64,000 nucleotides of DNA, from NCBI GenBank assembly GCA_963662315.1, contig OY759353.1:256001-320000 (forward strand), in the 5' to 3' direction. The stretch's first letter is position 1, and each line of letters opens with the position of its first letter. Under the pieces are notes generated by a model that was not told the DNA's origin, ran no database searches, and worked only from the letters and a program-made list of their open reading frames with translations. Positions 32,799 to 38,858 of the stretch are shown piece by piece. Source of the stretch: Geopsychrobacteraceae bacterium. GTDB lineage: Bacteria; Desulfobacterota; Desulfuromonadia; Desulfuromonadales; Geopsychrobacteraceae. The position numbers and the translations under genes were made by a program.

Positions 32799-33374
32799 AT
32801 GAACTATTACGATCAAAACGGCCAAGCATTCTTTGATAGTACTTTCCAGGTTGATATGGAAAGTATCTACGCACCATTTCTGAAAAAATTGCCGCCAGCG
32901 GGTATCATTATTGATGCCGGTTGCGGATCAGGCCGGGACGCTTTGGCGTTCTCCCGGATAGGGTTTCAAGTTGTTGCTTTTGATGCCAGTGAGCAACTGG
33001 TGCAACTGGCAAGGGAAAACACCGGTCTTGATGTAAAGTGCTGTGCCTTTACGGATTTTAGAACTGAACCGCAAAGTATAGACGCCATCTGGGCCTGCGC
33101 ATCGCTGCTGCATGTTCCGTTTTCTCAGTTGGCAGAAACATTCAAACACCTGGCAACGTTTTTAGTGCCAGCAGGAACTTTCTACTGTTCCTTCAAATAT
33201 GGTGATGGCGAGTCTCATCAAGATAATCGTCGTTTCACCAATCTAAATGAAAAGCTCTTAGCAGATGTTATAACCGCAACCGGCCTGCAGATCGAAAAGA
33301 CCTGGCAGAGTGAAGACCTGCGACCTGAACGGGTAGGGGAGATGTGGTTGAATGCGATTTTGGTTAAATGCTGA
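32799..33374 (+). CDS. Class I SAM-dependent methyltransferase
   Basis: IDAGCGSGRD, AFDAS, IWACASLLH, SFKYG, WLNAI. Confidence 0.88.
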   Translation: MNYYDQNGQAFFDSTFQVDMESIYAPFLKKLPPAGIIIDAGCGSGRDALAFSRIGFQVVAFDASEQLVQLARENTGLDVKCCAFTDFRTEPQSIDAIWACASLLHVPFSQLAETFKHLATFLVPAGTFYCSFKYGDGESHQDNRRFTNLNEKLLADVITATGLQIEKTWQSEDLRPERVGEMWLNAILVKC

Positions 33375-33384
33375 TGAGGAGCTT

Positions 33385-33567
33385 ATGGCGCTTGAGGATT
33401 ACATTGATAAGTTCAGCCATCTGAACATGAACGCCAATGGCGGGCGCAAAAGTCCCCATAAAGTGTGCATGTTGTTGGCGGTGATGGATCTGATCCTGGC
33501 GTTAAAAACTGGGGAGTGTCTCTCATTTTGTACCACTCTTTTAAATATTAGGGGGAAAAATGCCTAG
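33385..33567 (+). pseudogene. N-terminal remnant of a putative restriction endonuclease (SBD/HNH type)
   Basis: MALEDYIDKFSHLN...SPHKVCMLLAVMDLI resembles the N-terminus of HNH restriction nucleases. The resemblance appears to stop at the hairpin near 33505. Confidence 0.55.
33477..33519 (+). repeat. 43-bp direct repeat, copy 1 (copy 2 at 35138..35180)
   Basis: ggcggtgatggatctgatcc(t/a)ggcgttaaaaactggg(g/a)agtgt. Confidence 0.9.
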
Positions 33568-34567: not shown

Positions 34568-35010
34568 AACCTTTTGGCAAGCTAATTATTCTGAGTTTTC
34601 TCCTGCTTTGCACCTCCTGCGCGTACTTCACAGGTGGGGTTGATGATGTCGAGAGAGATGAATTTTTCAATAAACTTCCCATGATCAACGAAGAAATATT
34701 GGGGAACTTAAAATACGATGACCCGACTCTCAATTTGCAATCACTTGGGATAAATAGTTATGCCGAGCTTTTTTCGCAGCTTGATATGACGGATGATTAT
34801 CAGCGAGTTATAACTTATATCGATAAAAGTGCTGCTGAGAAAAAACTCCTTATTTTGAAAGACACTTTTGTCGTTTGTCTTCGTTCGGAGAAAAAACAGT
34901 ATCTGCTTTGTGACGATGCCGAGAGCACAGGGGCTGATAAGGTCTTGGTCGATCGAGAGTTGCCACTGTTGCAAGATGCTTTTGACAGTTTTTCCAAGTC
35001 CTTTGAGTAA
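34564..35010 (+). CDS. Putative lipoprotein
   Basis: MKPFGKLIILSFLLLCTSC lipobox-like signal; ATGA overlap with the PLC stop codon. Confidence 0.7.
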   Translation: MKPFGKLIILSFLLLCTSCAYFTGGVDDVERDEFFNKLPMINEEILGNLKYDDPTLNLQSLGINSYAELFSQLDMTDDYQRVITYIDKSAAEKKLLILKDTFVVCLRSEKKQYLLCDDAESTGADKVLVDRELPLLQDAFDSFSKSFE

Positions 35011-35289
35011 ATATATATGCTGAGCTAGTTGACTTTGGAATCAATTGATACCGTACTTGTTTTGTGGCTTGGCCATATCCAGAAGCAAAATCGAATATGA
35101 AACGACCAAGTCATAAAGAATTGTCAGGCAAGCTTCAGGCGGTGATGGATCTGATCCAGGCGTTAAAAACTGGGAAGTGTTTGAATGCATAAGTAACGAA
35201 AGAGGAAGCCTCCAGATGGCGGACAGTTCATAATATGAACAGGCGGGGTCGAATTCATCGCCCCGAGTCAGACCCAAAAGGAGGCTTCC

Positions 35290-36318
35290 ATGGAAAGTAT
35301 TCACTACATTGGCCTGGACGTCCACAAGAAAACCATCGCCTATTGCATCAAGAACATGAGCGGCAAAATGATTGATCAAGGGATCGTTGGAACTGAGCGC
35401 AGGGCTCTTCGGACGTGGCTATCGGCCTTGCCTGGCCCCTGGATGGGGGCTATGGAAGCGACACTGTTCACTGGCTGGATTTACGATTTTCTCAAACCAC
35501 ACGCGATTGAGCTGAAGGTTGCTCATCCGGAAATGCTCAAGGCGATTACTGCGGCAAAGAAGAAAAATGACCGGGCAGATGCTGAAAAGCTGGCGGATCT
35601 TCTACGAGTCAATCTTCTGCCCGAATGCACCATGATGTCCGAAGAGCTCCGGGAATTACGGCGTATTCTTCGTTATCGGAATATGGTGGTCCGCACGGCA
35701 GTGCAAATGAAAAATAAAATGGCCGGATTAATGATGGAAGTCGGCGCGACCTACGACAAAAAACGGTTGTATGGGAGCAAATACTTCAATCAACTGATGG
35801 AGCGGGTAGGCGATGTGCCCGATTCGGTCAAAGAGCTGTTACAACTGAGCCGCAGTAATCTAGAGCTGTTTACCGCCATCCAGAAGAAATTGGTTCGGAC
35901 TCTCCGGGAAAATGAACTGATTCGGCAGAGAGTTGAGCTTTTGATGAGCATTGCCGGGGTTGGAGAAATTATGGCTTTGACCTGGGTGTTGGAGATCGGT
36001 GATCCAACCCGCTTTCCCTCCAGTCGGGAAGCCATCAGCTATTGCGGACTCTGCAGTGCACAACGGGAATCGGCCGGGAAAGATCAACGAGGGCCACTCT
36101 CCAAAAAACGCAACAAGCACCTGCAGACCATGCTCATTGAAGCCGCTAAGCTAGCCCCACGATGGAATATTCAACTGGCGGAATTGCATGAAAAAGAGTT
36201 GACCAAAGGCAATCGCAACCGAGCCACTTTAGCTGTTGCACGCAAGCTGGTTGAATATCTGTTGGCCGTTGATCGACGTGGTACAGCTTTTGAGGAGAGA
36301 CAATCTCAGGTCGCCTGA
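35290..36318 (+). CDS. IS110 family DEDD transposase/recombinase
   Basis: IGLDVHK, AMEAT, KKNDRADA, SIAGVG, YCGL...ESAG, AVARKL. Confidence 0.95.
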   Translation: MESIHYIGLDVHKKTIAYCIKNMSGKMIDQGIVGTERRALRTWLSALPGPWMGAMEATLFTGWIYDFLKPHAIELKVAHPEMLKAITAAKKKNDRADAEKLADLLRVNLLPECTMMSEELRELRRILRYRNMVVRTAVQMKNKMAGLMMEVGATYDKKRLYGSKYFNQLMERVGDVPDSVKELLQLSRSNLELFTAIQKKLVRTLRENELIRQRVELLMSIAGVGEIMALTWVLEIGDPTRFPSSREAISYCGLCSAQRESAGKDQRGPLSKKRNKHLQTMLIEAAKLAPRWNIQLAELHEKELTKGNRNRATLAVARKLVEYLLAVDRRGTAFEERQSQVA

Positions 36319-36324
36319 GTTGGA

Positions 36325-36500
36325 GAAAAACAGATACTCTTTACATCAAACGATCTTCCCGCCGGGCCTTGCGGACTAGGGACTACGTGAGCTTCGCTGC
36401 ACGACATTGGGAGTGTTTCAAGGCTGGCGGGTTGGCCCAAACTCAATCTTCTGTGAAGGGATGATATCCCGGAGACAGCACATGGATGTCTGGTCGCTGA
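36325..36500 (+). ncRNA. Predicted bridge RNA/seekRNA in the IS right end (boundaries approximate)
   Basis: A stem-enclosed internal loop carries ACTAGGGAC and GGGAGTGT, matching the two sides of the insertion site; CATGGATGT matches the element's own right end. Confidence 0.75.
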
Positions 36501-36648
36501 TTTAGCGGACCAAAAGAATAGATTAAAAAGATCGAAGGATGCAAAGGACAAGGAAAAACAGAGTCGCCACCGGGAGTAGGCCCGCGAGGTAAAGGGAAAC
36601 CTCCGCTTTCCCCTTGACTTTACTTATCATGGATGTCCCTAGTTTTCC

Positions 36649-36826
36649 CAAATATGGTGATGACCAGGTCGAACGTAATGATCGTCATTTTACCAACCTA
36701 AATGAAAAGCTCTTAGCAGATGTTATAACCGCAACTGGGCTGCAGATCGATACGACCTGGCAGAGCGAAGACCTGCGCCCGGATCGGGTAGGGGAGATGT
36801 GGTTGACTGCGATTTTGGTGAAATAA
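36649..36826 (+). pseudogene. Diverged duplicate of the 3' end of the 32799..33374 methyltransferase
   Basis: KYGD...FTNLNEKLLADVITATGLQI..TWQSEDLRP.RVGEMWL.AILVK; DNA matches 33194..33370. Confidence 0.88.
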
Positions 36827-36895
36827 TCTTACAGCAAATGCTATAAAAGCCCTTTTGATTGCCTGCTAGATTTAAGGGAAGAGTCTGTTAGTAAA

Positions 36896-38455
36896 ATGAG
36901 AATACCTATTATTGATTTGTTTGCAGGGCCGGGAGGATTAGGTGAGGGATTCAGCCAAGTTGGTTGGCGTGAGGGAAATCCGTTTTTTAGGATTGGGCTT
37001 TCTGTTGAAAAAGAAGTTTTTGCACACAGGACTTTAAGGTTGCGGAGCTTTATCCGTCAATTTCCTTATAACGAAATTCCGGAAGAATATTTTCAATTTC
37101 TGAGAGAAGGTAAACAGCCCGAAGAATTGTTTTTAATAGATAAATATAAGGAGCAGGCCGATTCTGCAGAAAATGAAGCTTGGCACGAGACTTTACGAGA
37201 TGATGCTGATTTTAATAAAAAACTGGACGAGCGTATTAGTCTTGCTCTTGATGGAAATAAGAATTGGGTATTGATTGGAGGCCCTCCTTGCCAAGCATAC
37301 TCACTGGCTGGACGGTCACGCAATAAGGGAAAGAAAGATTATATTCCTGAAAAAGATCATCGTCATTTTCTCTATCAGGAATATTTACGAATTATTGGTG
37401 AGCACAAGCCGGCAGTGTTTGTCATGGAAAATGTTAAAGGGATTCTTACCTCTAAGGTAGGCGGGAGCCCTATTTTTAAACAGATCCTTAATGATCTAAG
37501 AAGTCCAATGAACGGTAATGGCTGTAAGTATAGAATATTTTCATTGGTTGCTCCTGCCGAAGAAGTCAATGAAAACGGTGATCCTCTTTTTGATGATCGT
37601 GACTTTATTATCAGGGCTGAAGAGTATGGAATTCCGCAGGCGAGGCATAGAGTTATTTTACTTGGCGTAAGAGAAGATATTGTTGAAAAAGGGATTATTC
37701 CAGAAATTTTACAAAAAAGAAAACAGGTAAGTCTTTATAAAATTCTTACTCTTCCTCCCTTAAGAAGTGGTATTTCCAGGGGGAACTTTACCGGGGAAGA
37801 ATGGTTAAGGGCAGTAAAAAGTTTTCGAATTAAAGAACTGAGAAACGAGATCGTAAAGATCTCTGACCACAGAACAATGGATCGGCTTTGGGACGCTTTG
37901 AAGGAACTCAGCATTCCTGCAAGTGATATGGGGGGGAACTTCGTGACGAAATCGCCGACTCGGATTGCAGACATATTTTTGGAAGGTTGGTATGAAGATT
38001 CTAGAATTGGCGGTGTTTATAATCATTTAGCACGGACGCACATGGTCTCCGATCTTCATAGATATATATATGCAGCCAGTTTTGCCAAATCCAGAGGGAT
38101 ATCTCCACGGATGGCTGAATTTCCGGAGGATCTTAAGCCGGATCACAAAAATAGGGACACTGGTGATTTTAATGACCGCTTCAGGGTTCAGGTGACAGGG
38201 AAGCCTGCAACCACAGTAACCTGTCATATTTCAAAAGACGGTCATTATTTTATTCACCCCGATCCATCTCAATGCAGGAGTTTGACTGTCAGGGAGGCTG
38301 CTCGTATTCAGACTTTCCCGGATAACTATTTTTTCTGTGGAAACAAGACAGAACAATACATACAGGTTGGAAATGCTGTTCCGCCACTTCTGGCCAATAA
38401 AATTGCGCTGATTGTTAAAAAAGTGCTTGTTGAGGCGTTTGGTAACAATGGCTGA
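36896..38455 (+). CDS. dcm: DNA (cytosine-5)-methyltransferase
   Basis: DLFAGPGG, GGPPCQ, MENV, PQARHR, RSLTVREAARIQTFPD, QVGNAVPP. Confidence 0.95.
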   Translation: MRIPIIDLFAGPGGLGEGFSQVGWREGNPFFRIGLSVEKEVFAHRTLRLRSFIRQFPYNEIPEEYFQFLREGKQPEELFLIDKYKEQADSAENEAWHETLRDDADFNKKLDERISLALDGNKNWVLIGGPPCQAYSLAGRSRNKGKKDYIPEKDHRHFLYQEYLRIIGEHKPAVFVMENVKGILTSKVGGSPIFKQILNDLRSPMNGNGCKYRIFSLVAPAEEVNENGDPLFDDRDFIIRAEEYGIPQARHRVILLGVREDIVEKGIIPEILQKRKQVSLYKILTLPPLRSGISRGNFTGEEWLRAVKSFRIKELRNEIVKISDHRTMDRLWDALKELSIPASDMGGNFVTKSPTRIADIFLEGWYEDSRIGGVYNHLARTHMVSDLHRYIYAASFAKSRGISPRMAEFPEDLKPDHKNRDTGDFNDRFRVQVTGKPATTVTCHISKDGHYFIHPDPSQCRSLTVREAARIQTFPDNYFFCGNKTEQYIQVGNAVPPLLANKIALIVKKVLVEAFGNNG

Positions 38456-38858
38456 CAGGATAACCAAAGAACGACGCAGCTGGAATATGTCCAGAATTCG
38501 TTCCAAGGATACCACTCCTGAAATGCGTGTGAGATCTTTTCTTCATCGTAAAGGTTACCGCTTCAGACTTCATGATAAAAAACTCCCAGGCAGTCCCGAT
38601 ATTGTTCTCAAAAAATATCGGACTGCCATTTTTGTTCATGGGTGCTACTGGCATAGACATACAGGTTGTAAAAACGCTTACTCTCCCAAGAGTCGTGTTG
38701 AATTCTGGGAGGAAAAATTCAGGCAGAATGTTGAAAGAGATCAAACGAAAGAAAGGCTGCTTTATGATGCGGGATGGAATGTTCTGACTGTATGGGAGTG
38801 TGAAACGAAATCACCTGAGCAGATTGAGCATGCTTTACGTGTATTTCTTAGAAAATGA
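38448..38858 (+). CDS. vsr: Very short patch repair endonuclease
   Basis: RRSWNMSRIRSKDTTPE, LPGSPD, FVHGCYWH, WEEK..NVERD, VWECE. Confidence 0.95.
   Translation: MADRITKERRSWNMSRIRSKDTTPEMRVRSFLHRKGYRFRLHDKKLPGSPDIVLKKYRTAIFVHGCYWHRHTGCKNAYSPKSRVEFWEEKFRQNVERDQTKERLLYDAGWNVLTVWECETKSPEQIEHALRVFLRK

Follow-up and report, generated by a model that had tools for sequence, protein, structure and literature searches.

RNA-guided recombinases of IS110 and IS1111 insertion sequences (IS) are under development as genome-editing tools that work without double-strand breaks. For the IS1111-family elements ISEc11, ISPa11, ISKpn4 and ISPst6, Siddiquee et al. 2024 (PMC11187229) describe a seekRNA encoded by the long non-coding stretch that follows the transposase gene; this RNA adopts a stem, an internal loop and a hairpin, and in it the match to the top strand of the target stands 5' of the match to the bottom strand, the two overlapping in the target. 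The same report gives elements of this family subterminal inverted repeats, a circle-junction promoter, a transposase of 330–350 aa and folded or palindromic targets such as REP and attC, and the locus described here resembles them in each of these respects. The bridge RNA of IS621, as presented by Durrant et al. 2024 (PMC11208160) and Hiraizumi et al. 2024 (PMC11208158), follows a two-part logic of target and donor guides, each guide including the core dinucleotide and reading opposite strands, with a DEDD plus Ser active site and guides that tolerate non-canonical pairs, and the present locus appears to share these features. According to these two descriptions, it departs from IS621 in the position of the RNA (5' of the gene in IS621, 3' here), in the order of the guides (left guide first in IS621, right then left here), in the surroundings of the donor strands (two simple internal loops in IS621, a multi-branch loop here) and in the core, which is CT in IS621 and GT (possibly TGT) here, where the left-end guide is also weak.

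The window, that is, the whole 64-kb stretch of DNA analysed, very probably contains at 35179–36636 an IS1111-group insertion sequence of the IS110 family with a 3' guide RNA (bridge RNA or seekRNA), whose target guides lie in the first loop and which likely carries a donor guide for the right end. The sequence-level basis consists of the strings themselves, covariation in the fold, covariation of the guides with the flanks, conserved ends with a split promoter, and aligned catalytic residues. By analogy with published work on ISEc11, ISPa11, ISKpn4 and IS621, the RNA would exist, bind the protein and drive recombination. A guide-RNA system of the IS1111 type is known in itself and the element reveals no new mechanism, while the present branch is apparently undescribed; no publications on this clade were found, and the ISfinder elements and targets tabulated with the papers of Durrant et al. 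and Siddiquee et al. may include a member. An earlier note on this DNA had proposed a candidate new programmable recombinase. Its 3' guide RNA of an IS1111-type element stands, and calling it a new programmable recombinase went too far: the element is a new member of a family in which other members have been shown to be programmable. The element and its protein and terminal features are as follows.

35179..36636, + strand: IS element, 1458 nt with a GT core copy at both ends, 1456 nt with one core
35181..35186, + strand: -10-like hexamer TTGAAT; the promoter is complete only once the right end joins the left end in a circle
35185..35196, + strand: left subterminal inverted repeat ATGCATAAGTAA, located by aligning the left end locally to the reverse-complemented right end
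35290..36318, + strand: transposase, 342 aa, DEDD plus Ser type, from Pfam, NCBIfam and alignment to IS621 and ISCro4 chains
36594..36612, + strand: terminator-like hairpin directly before the -35 box, from a consensus scan only
36614..36619, + strand: -35 box TTGACT of the junction promoter, from comparison of the family junctions
36620..36630, + strand: right subterminal inverted repeat TTACTTATCAT, from end-to-end local alignment

The ends were set by comparing the four genomic copies and 80 related loci (59–94% protein identity, mostly from Desulfuromonadales and Desulfobulbales assemblies). The left end reads (T)GT|TTGAATGCATAAGTAA and the right end TTGACT-TTACTTATCATGGAT|GT, with boundaries that are ambiguous by 2–3 nt because the core (GT or TGT) belongs to both element and target. 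All four copies in the element's own genome (one contig, 4.7 Mb) are 100% identical, which points to recent activity, and three of the four occupy the same site in the same orientation. The subterminal inverted repeats, ATG(C)ATAAGTAA, match at 11 of 12 positions and begin 6 nt in from either end, core included; repeats of 7–17 bp with short terminal extensions are a trait of the IS1111 group and are present here. The non-coding sequence amounts to 318 nt 3' of the transposase gene versus about 110 nt on the 5' side, which is the IS1111-group arrangement. After joining of the ends, TTGACT stands exactly 17 nt from TTGAAT. The same combination of TTGAC[T/A], a 17-nt spacer and a -10-like hexamer recurs in 45 of 47 distinct family junctions, with a perfect TATAAT in one relative, and a promoter scan found no sigma-70-like site in the integrated element. 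This putative promoter would represent the circle-junction promoter typical of IS110 and IS1111 elements. The 3' non-coding region, the subterminal repeats and the split promoter are together hallmarks of the IS1111 group (Siddiquee et al. 2024; Durrant et al. 2024). At least as many terminator-like sites turned up in shuffled versions of the region.

The transposase matched the Pfam families PF01548 (DEDD_Tnp_IS110, E = 2.2e-18) and PF02371 (Transposase_20, E = 8.9e-21) and scored 186.5 bits against NCBIfam NF033542, "IS110 family RNA-guided transposase" (cutoff 140). Its predicted N-terminal DEDD/RuvC-like and C-terminal Transposase_20 domains are those expected of the IS110 family. In alignments to the PDB chains of IS621 and ISCro4, residues D10, E56, D94, D97 and S261 fell opposite D11, E60, D102, D105 and S241 of IS621, and are the putative catalytic DEDD and Ser residues. 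Its length of 342 aa falls within the IS1111-type range of 330–350 aa. The motif GLCSAQRESAG keeps the G, L and S of GL-P----S(t)G in correct spacing, with S in place of P and A in place of the following G; occasional TA variants of the motif are mentioned by Siddiquee et al. 2024 (PMC11187229). Against an IS5075-family transposase, the identity was 24.3% over residues 1–335 (E = 1e-7), and by exact look-up the protein forms an unnamed cluster of one.

The guide RNA would be encoded on the + strand at roughly 36352–36533, expressed from the TTGACT-17 nt-TTGAAT promoter formed on circularisation and processed out of the transposase transcript. In the proposed fold, the closing helix P0 would surround a target module (P1, internal loop and P2) and, inside a multi-branch loop, a donor-facing module followed by hairpin H3, the donor-facing module being a single strand, the P3/P4 hairpin and another single strand.

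36352..36357, + strand: P0 closing helix, 5' strand GAUCUU, pairs with 36528–36533
36358..36371, + strand: P1, 5' strand, pairs with 36419–36431
36386..36403, + strand: P2 inner hairpin, 36386–36392 with 36396–36403
36419..36431, + strand: P1, 3' strand, pairs with 36358–36371
36451..36478, + strand: P3/P4 hairpin between the two donor-facing strands, P3 36451–54 with 36475–78, P4 36458–61 with 36467–70
36492..36511, + strand: hairpin H3, 36492–97 with 36505–11, 88.1% paired, little covariation
36528..36533, + strand: P0, 3' strand AAGAUC, pairs with 36352–36357

The RNA regions of the 80 loci and the window yielded 62 non-redundant sequences (7 were duplicates and 12 lacked an anchor), and the fold counts use the 34 regions of at most 161 nt, leaving out the 28 longer ones with an expanded second-hairpin arm. 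Across P1–P4, 96.4% of cells were paired and 19 of 27 pairs had compensatory changes, a level of covariation that 0 of 500 shuffles reached, and sliding the partners by 1–3 columns as a control lowered pairing to 38–45%. The stem and inner hairpin that the earlier note had drawn are real: P1 (36358–36371/36419–36431) was 98.2% paired with compensatory changes in 7 of 13 pairs, and P2 (36386–36392/36396–36403) was 97.5% paired with such changes in 5 of 6. For P3 the values were 94.1% and 3 of 4 pairs, and for P4 91.0% and 4 of 4. P0, evaluated like H3 in a longer alignment, had 90.4% of cells paired and compensatory changes in 3 of 6 pairs, each of them seen in one or two sequences; the helix is absent from the RNAalifold prediction and was tested only as a named structure. 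Single-sequence folding energy was no better than that of shuffles (z = 0.34 and -0.59) and is uninformative; the support is comparative, coming from structure covariation and from guide–flank covariation.

Conserved (A/G)UCUUC or GUUUC sequences precede the P1 5' strand, the P1 3' strand and P3 (window 36355–36360, 36416–36420 and 36447–36452), and this repeated element before helices may be a protein-binding feature of the scaffold. An extra arm of 30–40 nt in the P3/P4 hairpin marks 28 of the 62 non-redundant RNA regions (L030, L033, L035, L057–L070, L074–L086); the non-coding regions of this subgroup measure 345–500 nt, with the target loop and the donor-facing strands unchanged.

The first internal loop carries the two target guides, which are listed here with the target halves that they match.

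35173..35180, + strand: left target and core (GGAAGT|GT); the left-target guide has the same sense
36375..36383, + strand: right-target guide ACUAGGGAC, first internal loop, 5' strand; matches core and right flank
36409..36416, + strand: left-target guide GGGAGUGU, first internal loop, 3' strand; matches left flank and core
36635..36643, + strand: core plus right target (GT|CCCTAGT), from a 9-mer search and copy comparison

Pattern searches recovered all five strings on which the earlier note was built, each at the position used here. Its first loop strand, ACTAGGGAC (36375–36383), is the exact reverse complement of GTCCCTAGT (36635–36643) at the right junction, as had been claimed, and follows the right flanks in relatives; GTCCCTAGT or its reverse complement occurs at only two places in the 64-kb window, with 0.18 expected. 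Its second loop strand, GGGAGTGT (36409–36416), shows one difference from the left flank GGAAGTGT (35173–35180). The claimed match holds and marks a left-target guide, and the supposed mismatch is a G.T wobble: a top-strand A is replaced by G in the guide, and this RNA G would face the bottom-strand T. Among the four copies, the left flank reads GGAAGTGT in three and GGCAGTGT in one. The left guide pairs at 8 of 8 positions with one G.T wobble in three copies and at 7 of 8 in the fourth (c3, a true mismatch), and the right guide of the window element pairs at 9 of 9. The right flank of copy c4, GTTCCAAACAG, misfits the right-target guide. Identity of the left-target guide to the left junction extends by two bases, UU (36417–36418), into the left end. 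The top-strand match is 5' and the bottom-strand match 3', as reported for IS1111 seekRNAs, and the two overlap at the core.

Comparison across homologous copies, the check that had been proposed for these guides, supported them. Loop strands were anchored on the alignment and each was compared with the junctions of its own element, identical guide-plus-flank pairs being counted once; four loci with mis-anchored loops (L034, L046, L056 and L083) and loci without an end were left out. Between the reverse complement of the 5' strand and the core plus right flank (n = 50), the mean identity was 5.82 of 8 variable positions (shuffled 4.43, sd 0.16), and between the 3' strand and the left flank plus core (n = 59) it was 5.53 of 8 (shuffled 3.34, sd 0.17). 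For either strand, 0 of 5000 shuffles reached the observed value, a count that overstates significance because the compared sequences are related and not independent. With wobble allowed, 39 of 49 right guides formed at least 8 of 10 pairs. Among the left guides, 40 of 50 formed at least 7 of 8. The remaining 10 of 49 and 10 of 50 fall below these thresholds. Clear cases include L025 with 9 nt including a variant GC core, L040 with 10 nt and an AT core, L029 and L068 with 10 nt each, and L071 with 8 nt. As the loop strands change jointly with the flanks, the right-target guide would be ACTAGGGAC and the left-target guide GGGAGTGT. Judged from these comparisons, the natural reprogramming that characterises a seekRNA or bridge RNA, with guides that change with the target in relatives, is present in this family.

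A total of 57 distinct guide pairs was counted among 72 loci on an almost constant scaffold. Such a constant scaffold and constant donor ends with dozens of guide pairs show which loop positions are programmable, namely, on the left, about five variable positions together with the UGU and, on the right, about six after GUCC, and the natural series of guides shows which mismatches or wobbles are tolerated. In the proposed mechanism, the two loop strands would jointly guide the DEDD/Ser transposase onto a short, REP-like palindromic site, AAA(A)CT(A)GGG-N-AGT|GT|CCCTAGTTTT. For genome annotation, the element with its guide RNA explains the four identical IS copies and predicts their insertion sites.

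Occupied sites read AAA(A)CT(A)GGG-N-AGT|GT|CCCTAGTTTT(T), which is an imperfect palindrome with a T run after it, and the natural target of the element is AAAACTGGGAAGTGTCCCTAGTTTT. A search of its own genome for the exact uninterrupted target gave near matches only. Unoccupied near-target sequences (GGGGAGCGTCCCTAGTTTTT and GGAGAGTGCCCCTAGTTTT) lie at G000:C1 4204871 (+), 4209432 (+), 4270081 (+) and 4236304 (-); those at 4204871 and 4209432 read GGGGAGCGTCCCTAGTTTTT, which, by hand pairing and not by computation, would match both guides at every position with one U.G wobble permitted. A single 14-kb region holds three of the four copies, the sites at 4204871 and 4209432, and an IS200-like Y1 transposase gene (L091 10789–11607) with fragments of it, two of the unoccupied sequences being neighbours of this gene and its fragments. 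By analogy with ISPa11 and ISPpu9, this suggests as the target a REP-like repeat belonging to a REP/RAYT system. The empty site was not recovered, as no contig from four sequencing runs joined across the element; loose contig ends at the locus gave further flanks, several of which continue past GTCCCTAGTT.

Two of the copies lie close together: c2 (G000:C1 4201034–4202511) and c4 (about 4203075–4204542) are 2031 bp apart (L091 3035–6543). Their left flanks are near-identical over at least 300 nt, and the cognate right flank is found in c2 only, with GTTCCAAACAG after c4. The arrangement looks like a duplication or rearrangement involving the element, and c4, tandemly repeated with c2, is probably the product of a rearrangement.

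The donor-facing strands (36433–36491) lie 3' of the target module, in series, inside the multi-branch loop. Durrant et al. 2024 (PMC11208160) describe potential donor-binding nucleotides in the multi-loop of many IS1111 orthologues. Two candidates were considered.

36436..36448, + strand: tentative left-end (right-donor) guide CCCAAACUCAAUC, conserved single strand with two possible registers
36481..36489, + strand: left-donor guide candidate CAUGGAUGU, same sense as the right end plus core

The duplication of the right end (36628) by CATGGATGT (36481), pointed out in the earlier note, is borne out. Within the window the string occurs only at 36481–36489 and 36628–36636, with 0.70 expected. 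The 3' donor-facing strand, GCA(A/C)AUGGAUGUCUGG, is kept family-wide and repeats the right end plus core over 8–9 nt. In L036, L037 and L061, ATAGATGT appears in both this strand and the right end, and in L041/L043 one of the two right-end changes is mirrored. Since CATGGATGT is conserved and follows right-end changes in three relatives, it is a plausible donor guide, and CAUGGAUGU (36481–36489) most likely reads the right end of the donor and the core. For the left end, CCCAAACUCAAUC can be placed in two registers. In the first, CAAAC (36438–36442) is complementary to 5 nt of GTTTG; in the second, ACUCAAUC (36441–36448) forms 6 of 8 pairs with GTTTGAAT. The second register gains from L079, which pairs 8 of 8 with its own variant left end GTTTAAAT, from L078 with 7 of 8 and from a compensatory C-to-U change in L055. 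Covariation is confined to these three loci, and most left-end variants (GTTAGAATG, GTTATAATG) have no counterpart change in the RNA. An unbiased search of the whole non-coding region found no conserved contiguous left-end match of at least 6 nt in either sense. The reading of the left end would at best be a short or interrupted match at 36436–36448.

The strongest competitor of a donor guide, which we consider unlikely, is that only the target loop is read. In that case the RNA would be a short seekRNA of P1, internal loop and P2, the protein would read the donor ends through target-derived flanks and the subterminal repeats, and CAUGGAUGU and CCCAAACUCAAUC would be scaffold or protein-binding sequences. 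According to Siddiquee et al. 2024 (PMC11187229), a short ISEc11 seekRNA with two target matches was sufficient for transposition, and therefore donor-facing strands may be dispensable; the 82-nt short form outperformed the long one, and the donor had to carry target-derived flanks. The lack of a convincing left-end guide in the non-coding region fits this explanation, as do the right ends of L008, L009, L055, L041/L043 and L028, which differ from the putative guide at -3 while the guide is unchanged. Against it stand the 8–9 nt of identity to the right end and core that are kept across the family, the changes of the 3' donor strand with the right end in the three relatives and partly in L041/L043, and the 5' donor-facing strand of L079, a perfect 8-nt complement of that element's own variant left end.

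The nested layout of the earlier note, with TCAAAC (36346) and CATGGATGT (36481) as donor guides on either side of the target loop, fares far worse and is highly improbable. Both strings exist, TCAAAC (36346–36351) is complementary to the left junction as claimed, and an outer closing helix, P0, is present, so that the donor-facing strands do not occupy a simple internal loop. The complementarity is nevertheless at chance level, with GTTTGA/TCAAAC found 61 times in the window, or about once per kb. TCAAAC occurs in 3 of 57 non-redundant combinations, those of the window type (the window element and its closest relatives), and the longest left-end match in this segment is at most 4 nt in 49 of 57, while the left end is conserved in all. 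The hexamer also lies 5' of P0, where it can pair in an extended closing helix (I1), and the donor-facing strands of the family are found 3' of the target loop in the multi-branch loop. TCAAAC (36346..36351, + strand) was rejected as a left-end guide: the left end GTTTGAATG is nearly invariant, yet the stretch that precedes the closing stem varies. That the region has no guide function at all, being an ordinary 3' UTR, terminator or translational element with flank matches due to coincidence or target copying, agrees with its unexceptional folding energy but is scarcely credible in view of guide–flank covariation over dozens of elements with different targets on a constant scaffold and of an architecture identical to that of the seekRNAs proven experimentally by Siddiquee et al. 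2024 (PMC11187229).

The two junctions differ in how far they vary across the family. The right junction varies in or near the core among otherwise identical or related elements (L007–L009, L028, L041/L043, L055, L040, L025 and L084; compare window 36634–36636). Its position -3 is A or C in L008, L009, L055, L041/L043 and L028, and cores AT, GC or GA replace GT in L040, L025 and L084, all three matching the right-target guide. The left junction is the donor-type TGT in 58 of 59 loci. These variants point to a right-junction core taken from the target and to an exchange region of perhaps 3 nt. Taken together, the right-junction variants, the near-constant left TGT and the lack of a contiguous left-end RNA guide raise the doubtful possibility of an asymmetry of this clade that is undescribed for IS621, in which the exchange region would be 3 nt, both crossovers would effectively lie to its left, and the left end would be read by the protein and the subterminal repeat instead of the RNA. 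The clade also offers a natural series of 57 guide pairs in which scaffold and donor hardly vary.

A covariance model built from the 34 non-redundant sequences found only the four IS copies in the element's own genome (150 of 939 candidates scored). Among 151 genomes sampled from the same order it matched 17, in 15 of 64 genera, and this patchy spread is as expected of a mobile element. A search of window 34900–36900 against Rfam gave no matches at E up to 1, and the covariance model gave no significant match to the IS5075 non-coding region; homology to characterised seekRNAs consequently rests on architecture and not on sequence. From named members of the IS1111 group the element is set apart by a transposase identity of about 24% (one compared, of the IS5075 family), by the lack of RNA sequence similarity and by the GLCSAQRESAG motif. 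Its transposase aligns with that of IS5075/IS4321, also of the IS1111 family, over the full length (residues 1–335), at the low identity given above, and the target class differs, theirs being the terminal repeats of Tn21-type transposons. By eye, the 3' non-coding region of IS5075 shows the same arrangement: AAAACGGAA, the reverse complement of the right flank TTCCGTTTT, lies at the 5' side of a small hairpin that a stem encloses. ISPpu9 of Pseudomonas putida, as described with Ssr9 (PMC12288879), is likewise an IS110-family element; it is inserted in REP sequences, and a small-RNA gene follows its transposase gene. Unlike P. putida, which has stand-alone ssr9 copies according to that description, the genome studied here has no copies of the RNA beyond the four elements among the 150 of 939 candidates scored.

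Further observations concern the neighbourhood of the copies. Directly to the right of the window element lies a gene for a C-5 cytosine DNA methylase (Pfam PF00145, window 36896–38455), and a small ORF that overlaps it (38412–38858) may encode a very-short-patch repair endonuclease. Paralogous stretches of the flanks of the window copy occur about 1.7–3.4 kb upstream, where window 33182–33567 corresponds to 35098–35190 (82% identity) and to 36640–36750 (95% identity); the left-flank paralogue reads AAAACTGGGGAGTGTCTCTCATTT, which resembles the left half of a target but lacks the right one. Beside the IS cluster, a 376-aa ORF (L091 11806–12936, -) ends in a bacterial CdiA-CT RNase A domain (Pfam PF18431), and a 389-aa ORF (L091 7505–8674, -) contains a 95%-identical repeat of part of it without PF18431. 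The same region also encodes an ABC-3C middle component (PF20288) and an AAA/SMC-like ATPase, and it looks like a defence or polymorphic-toxin island.
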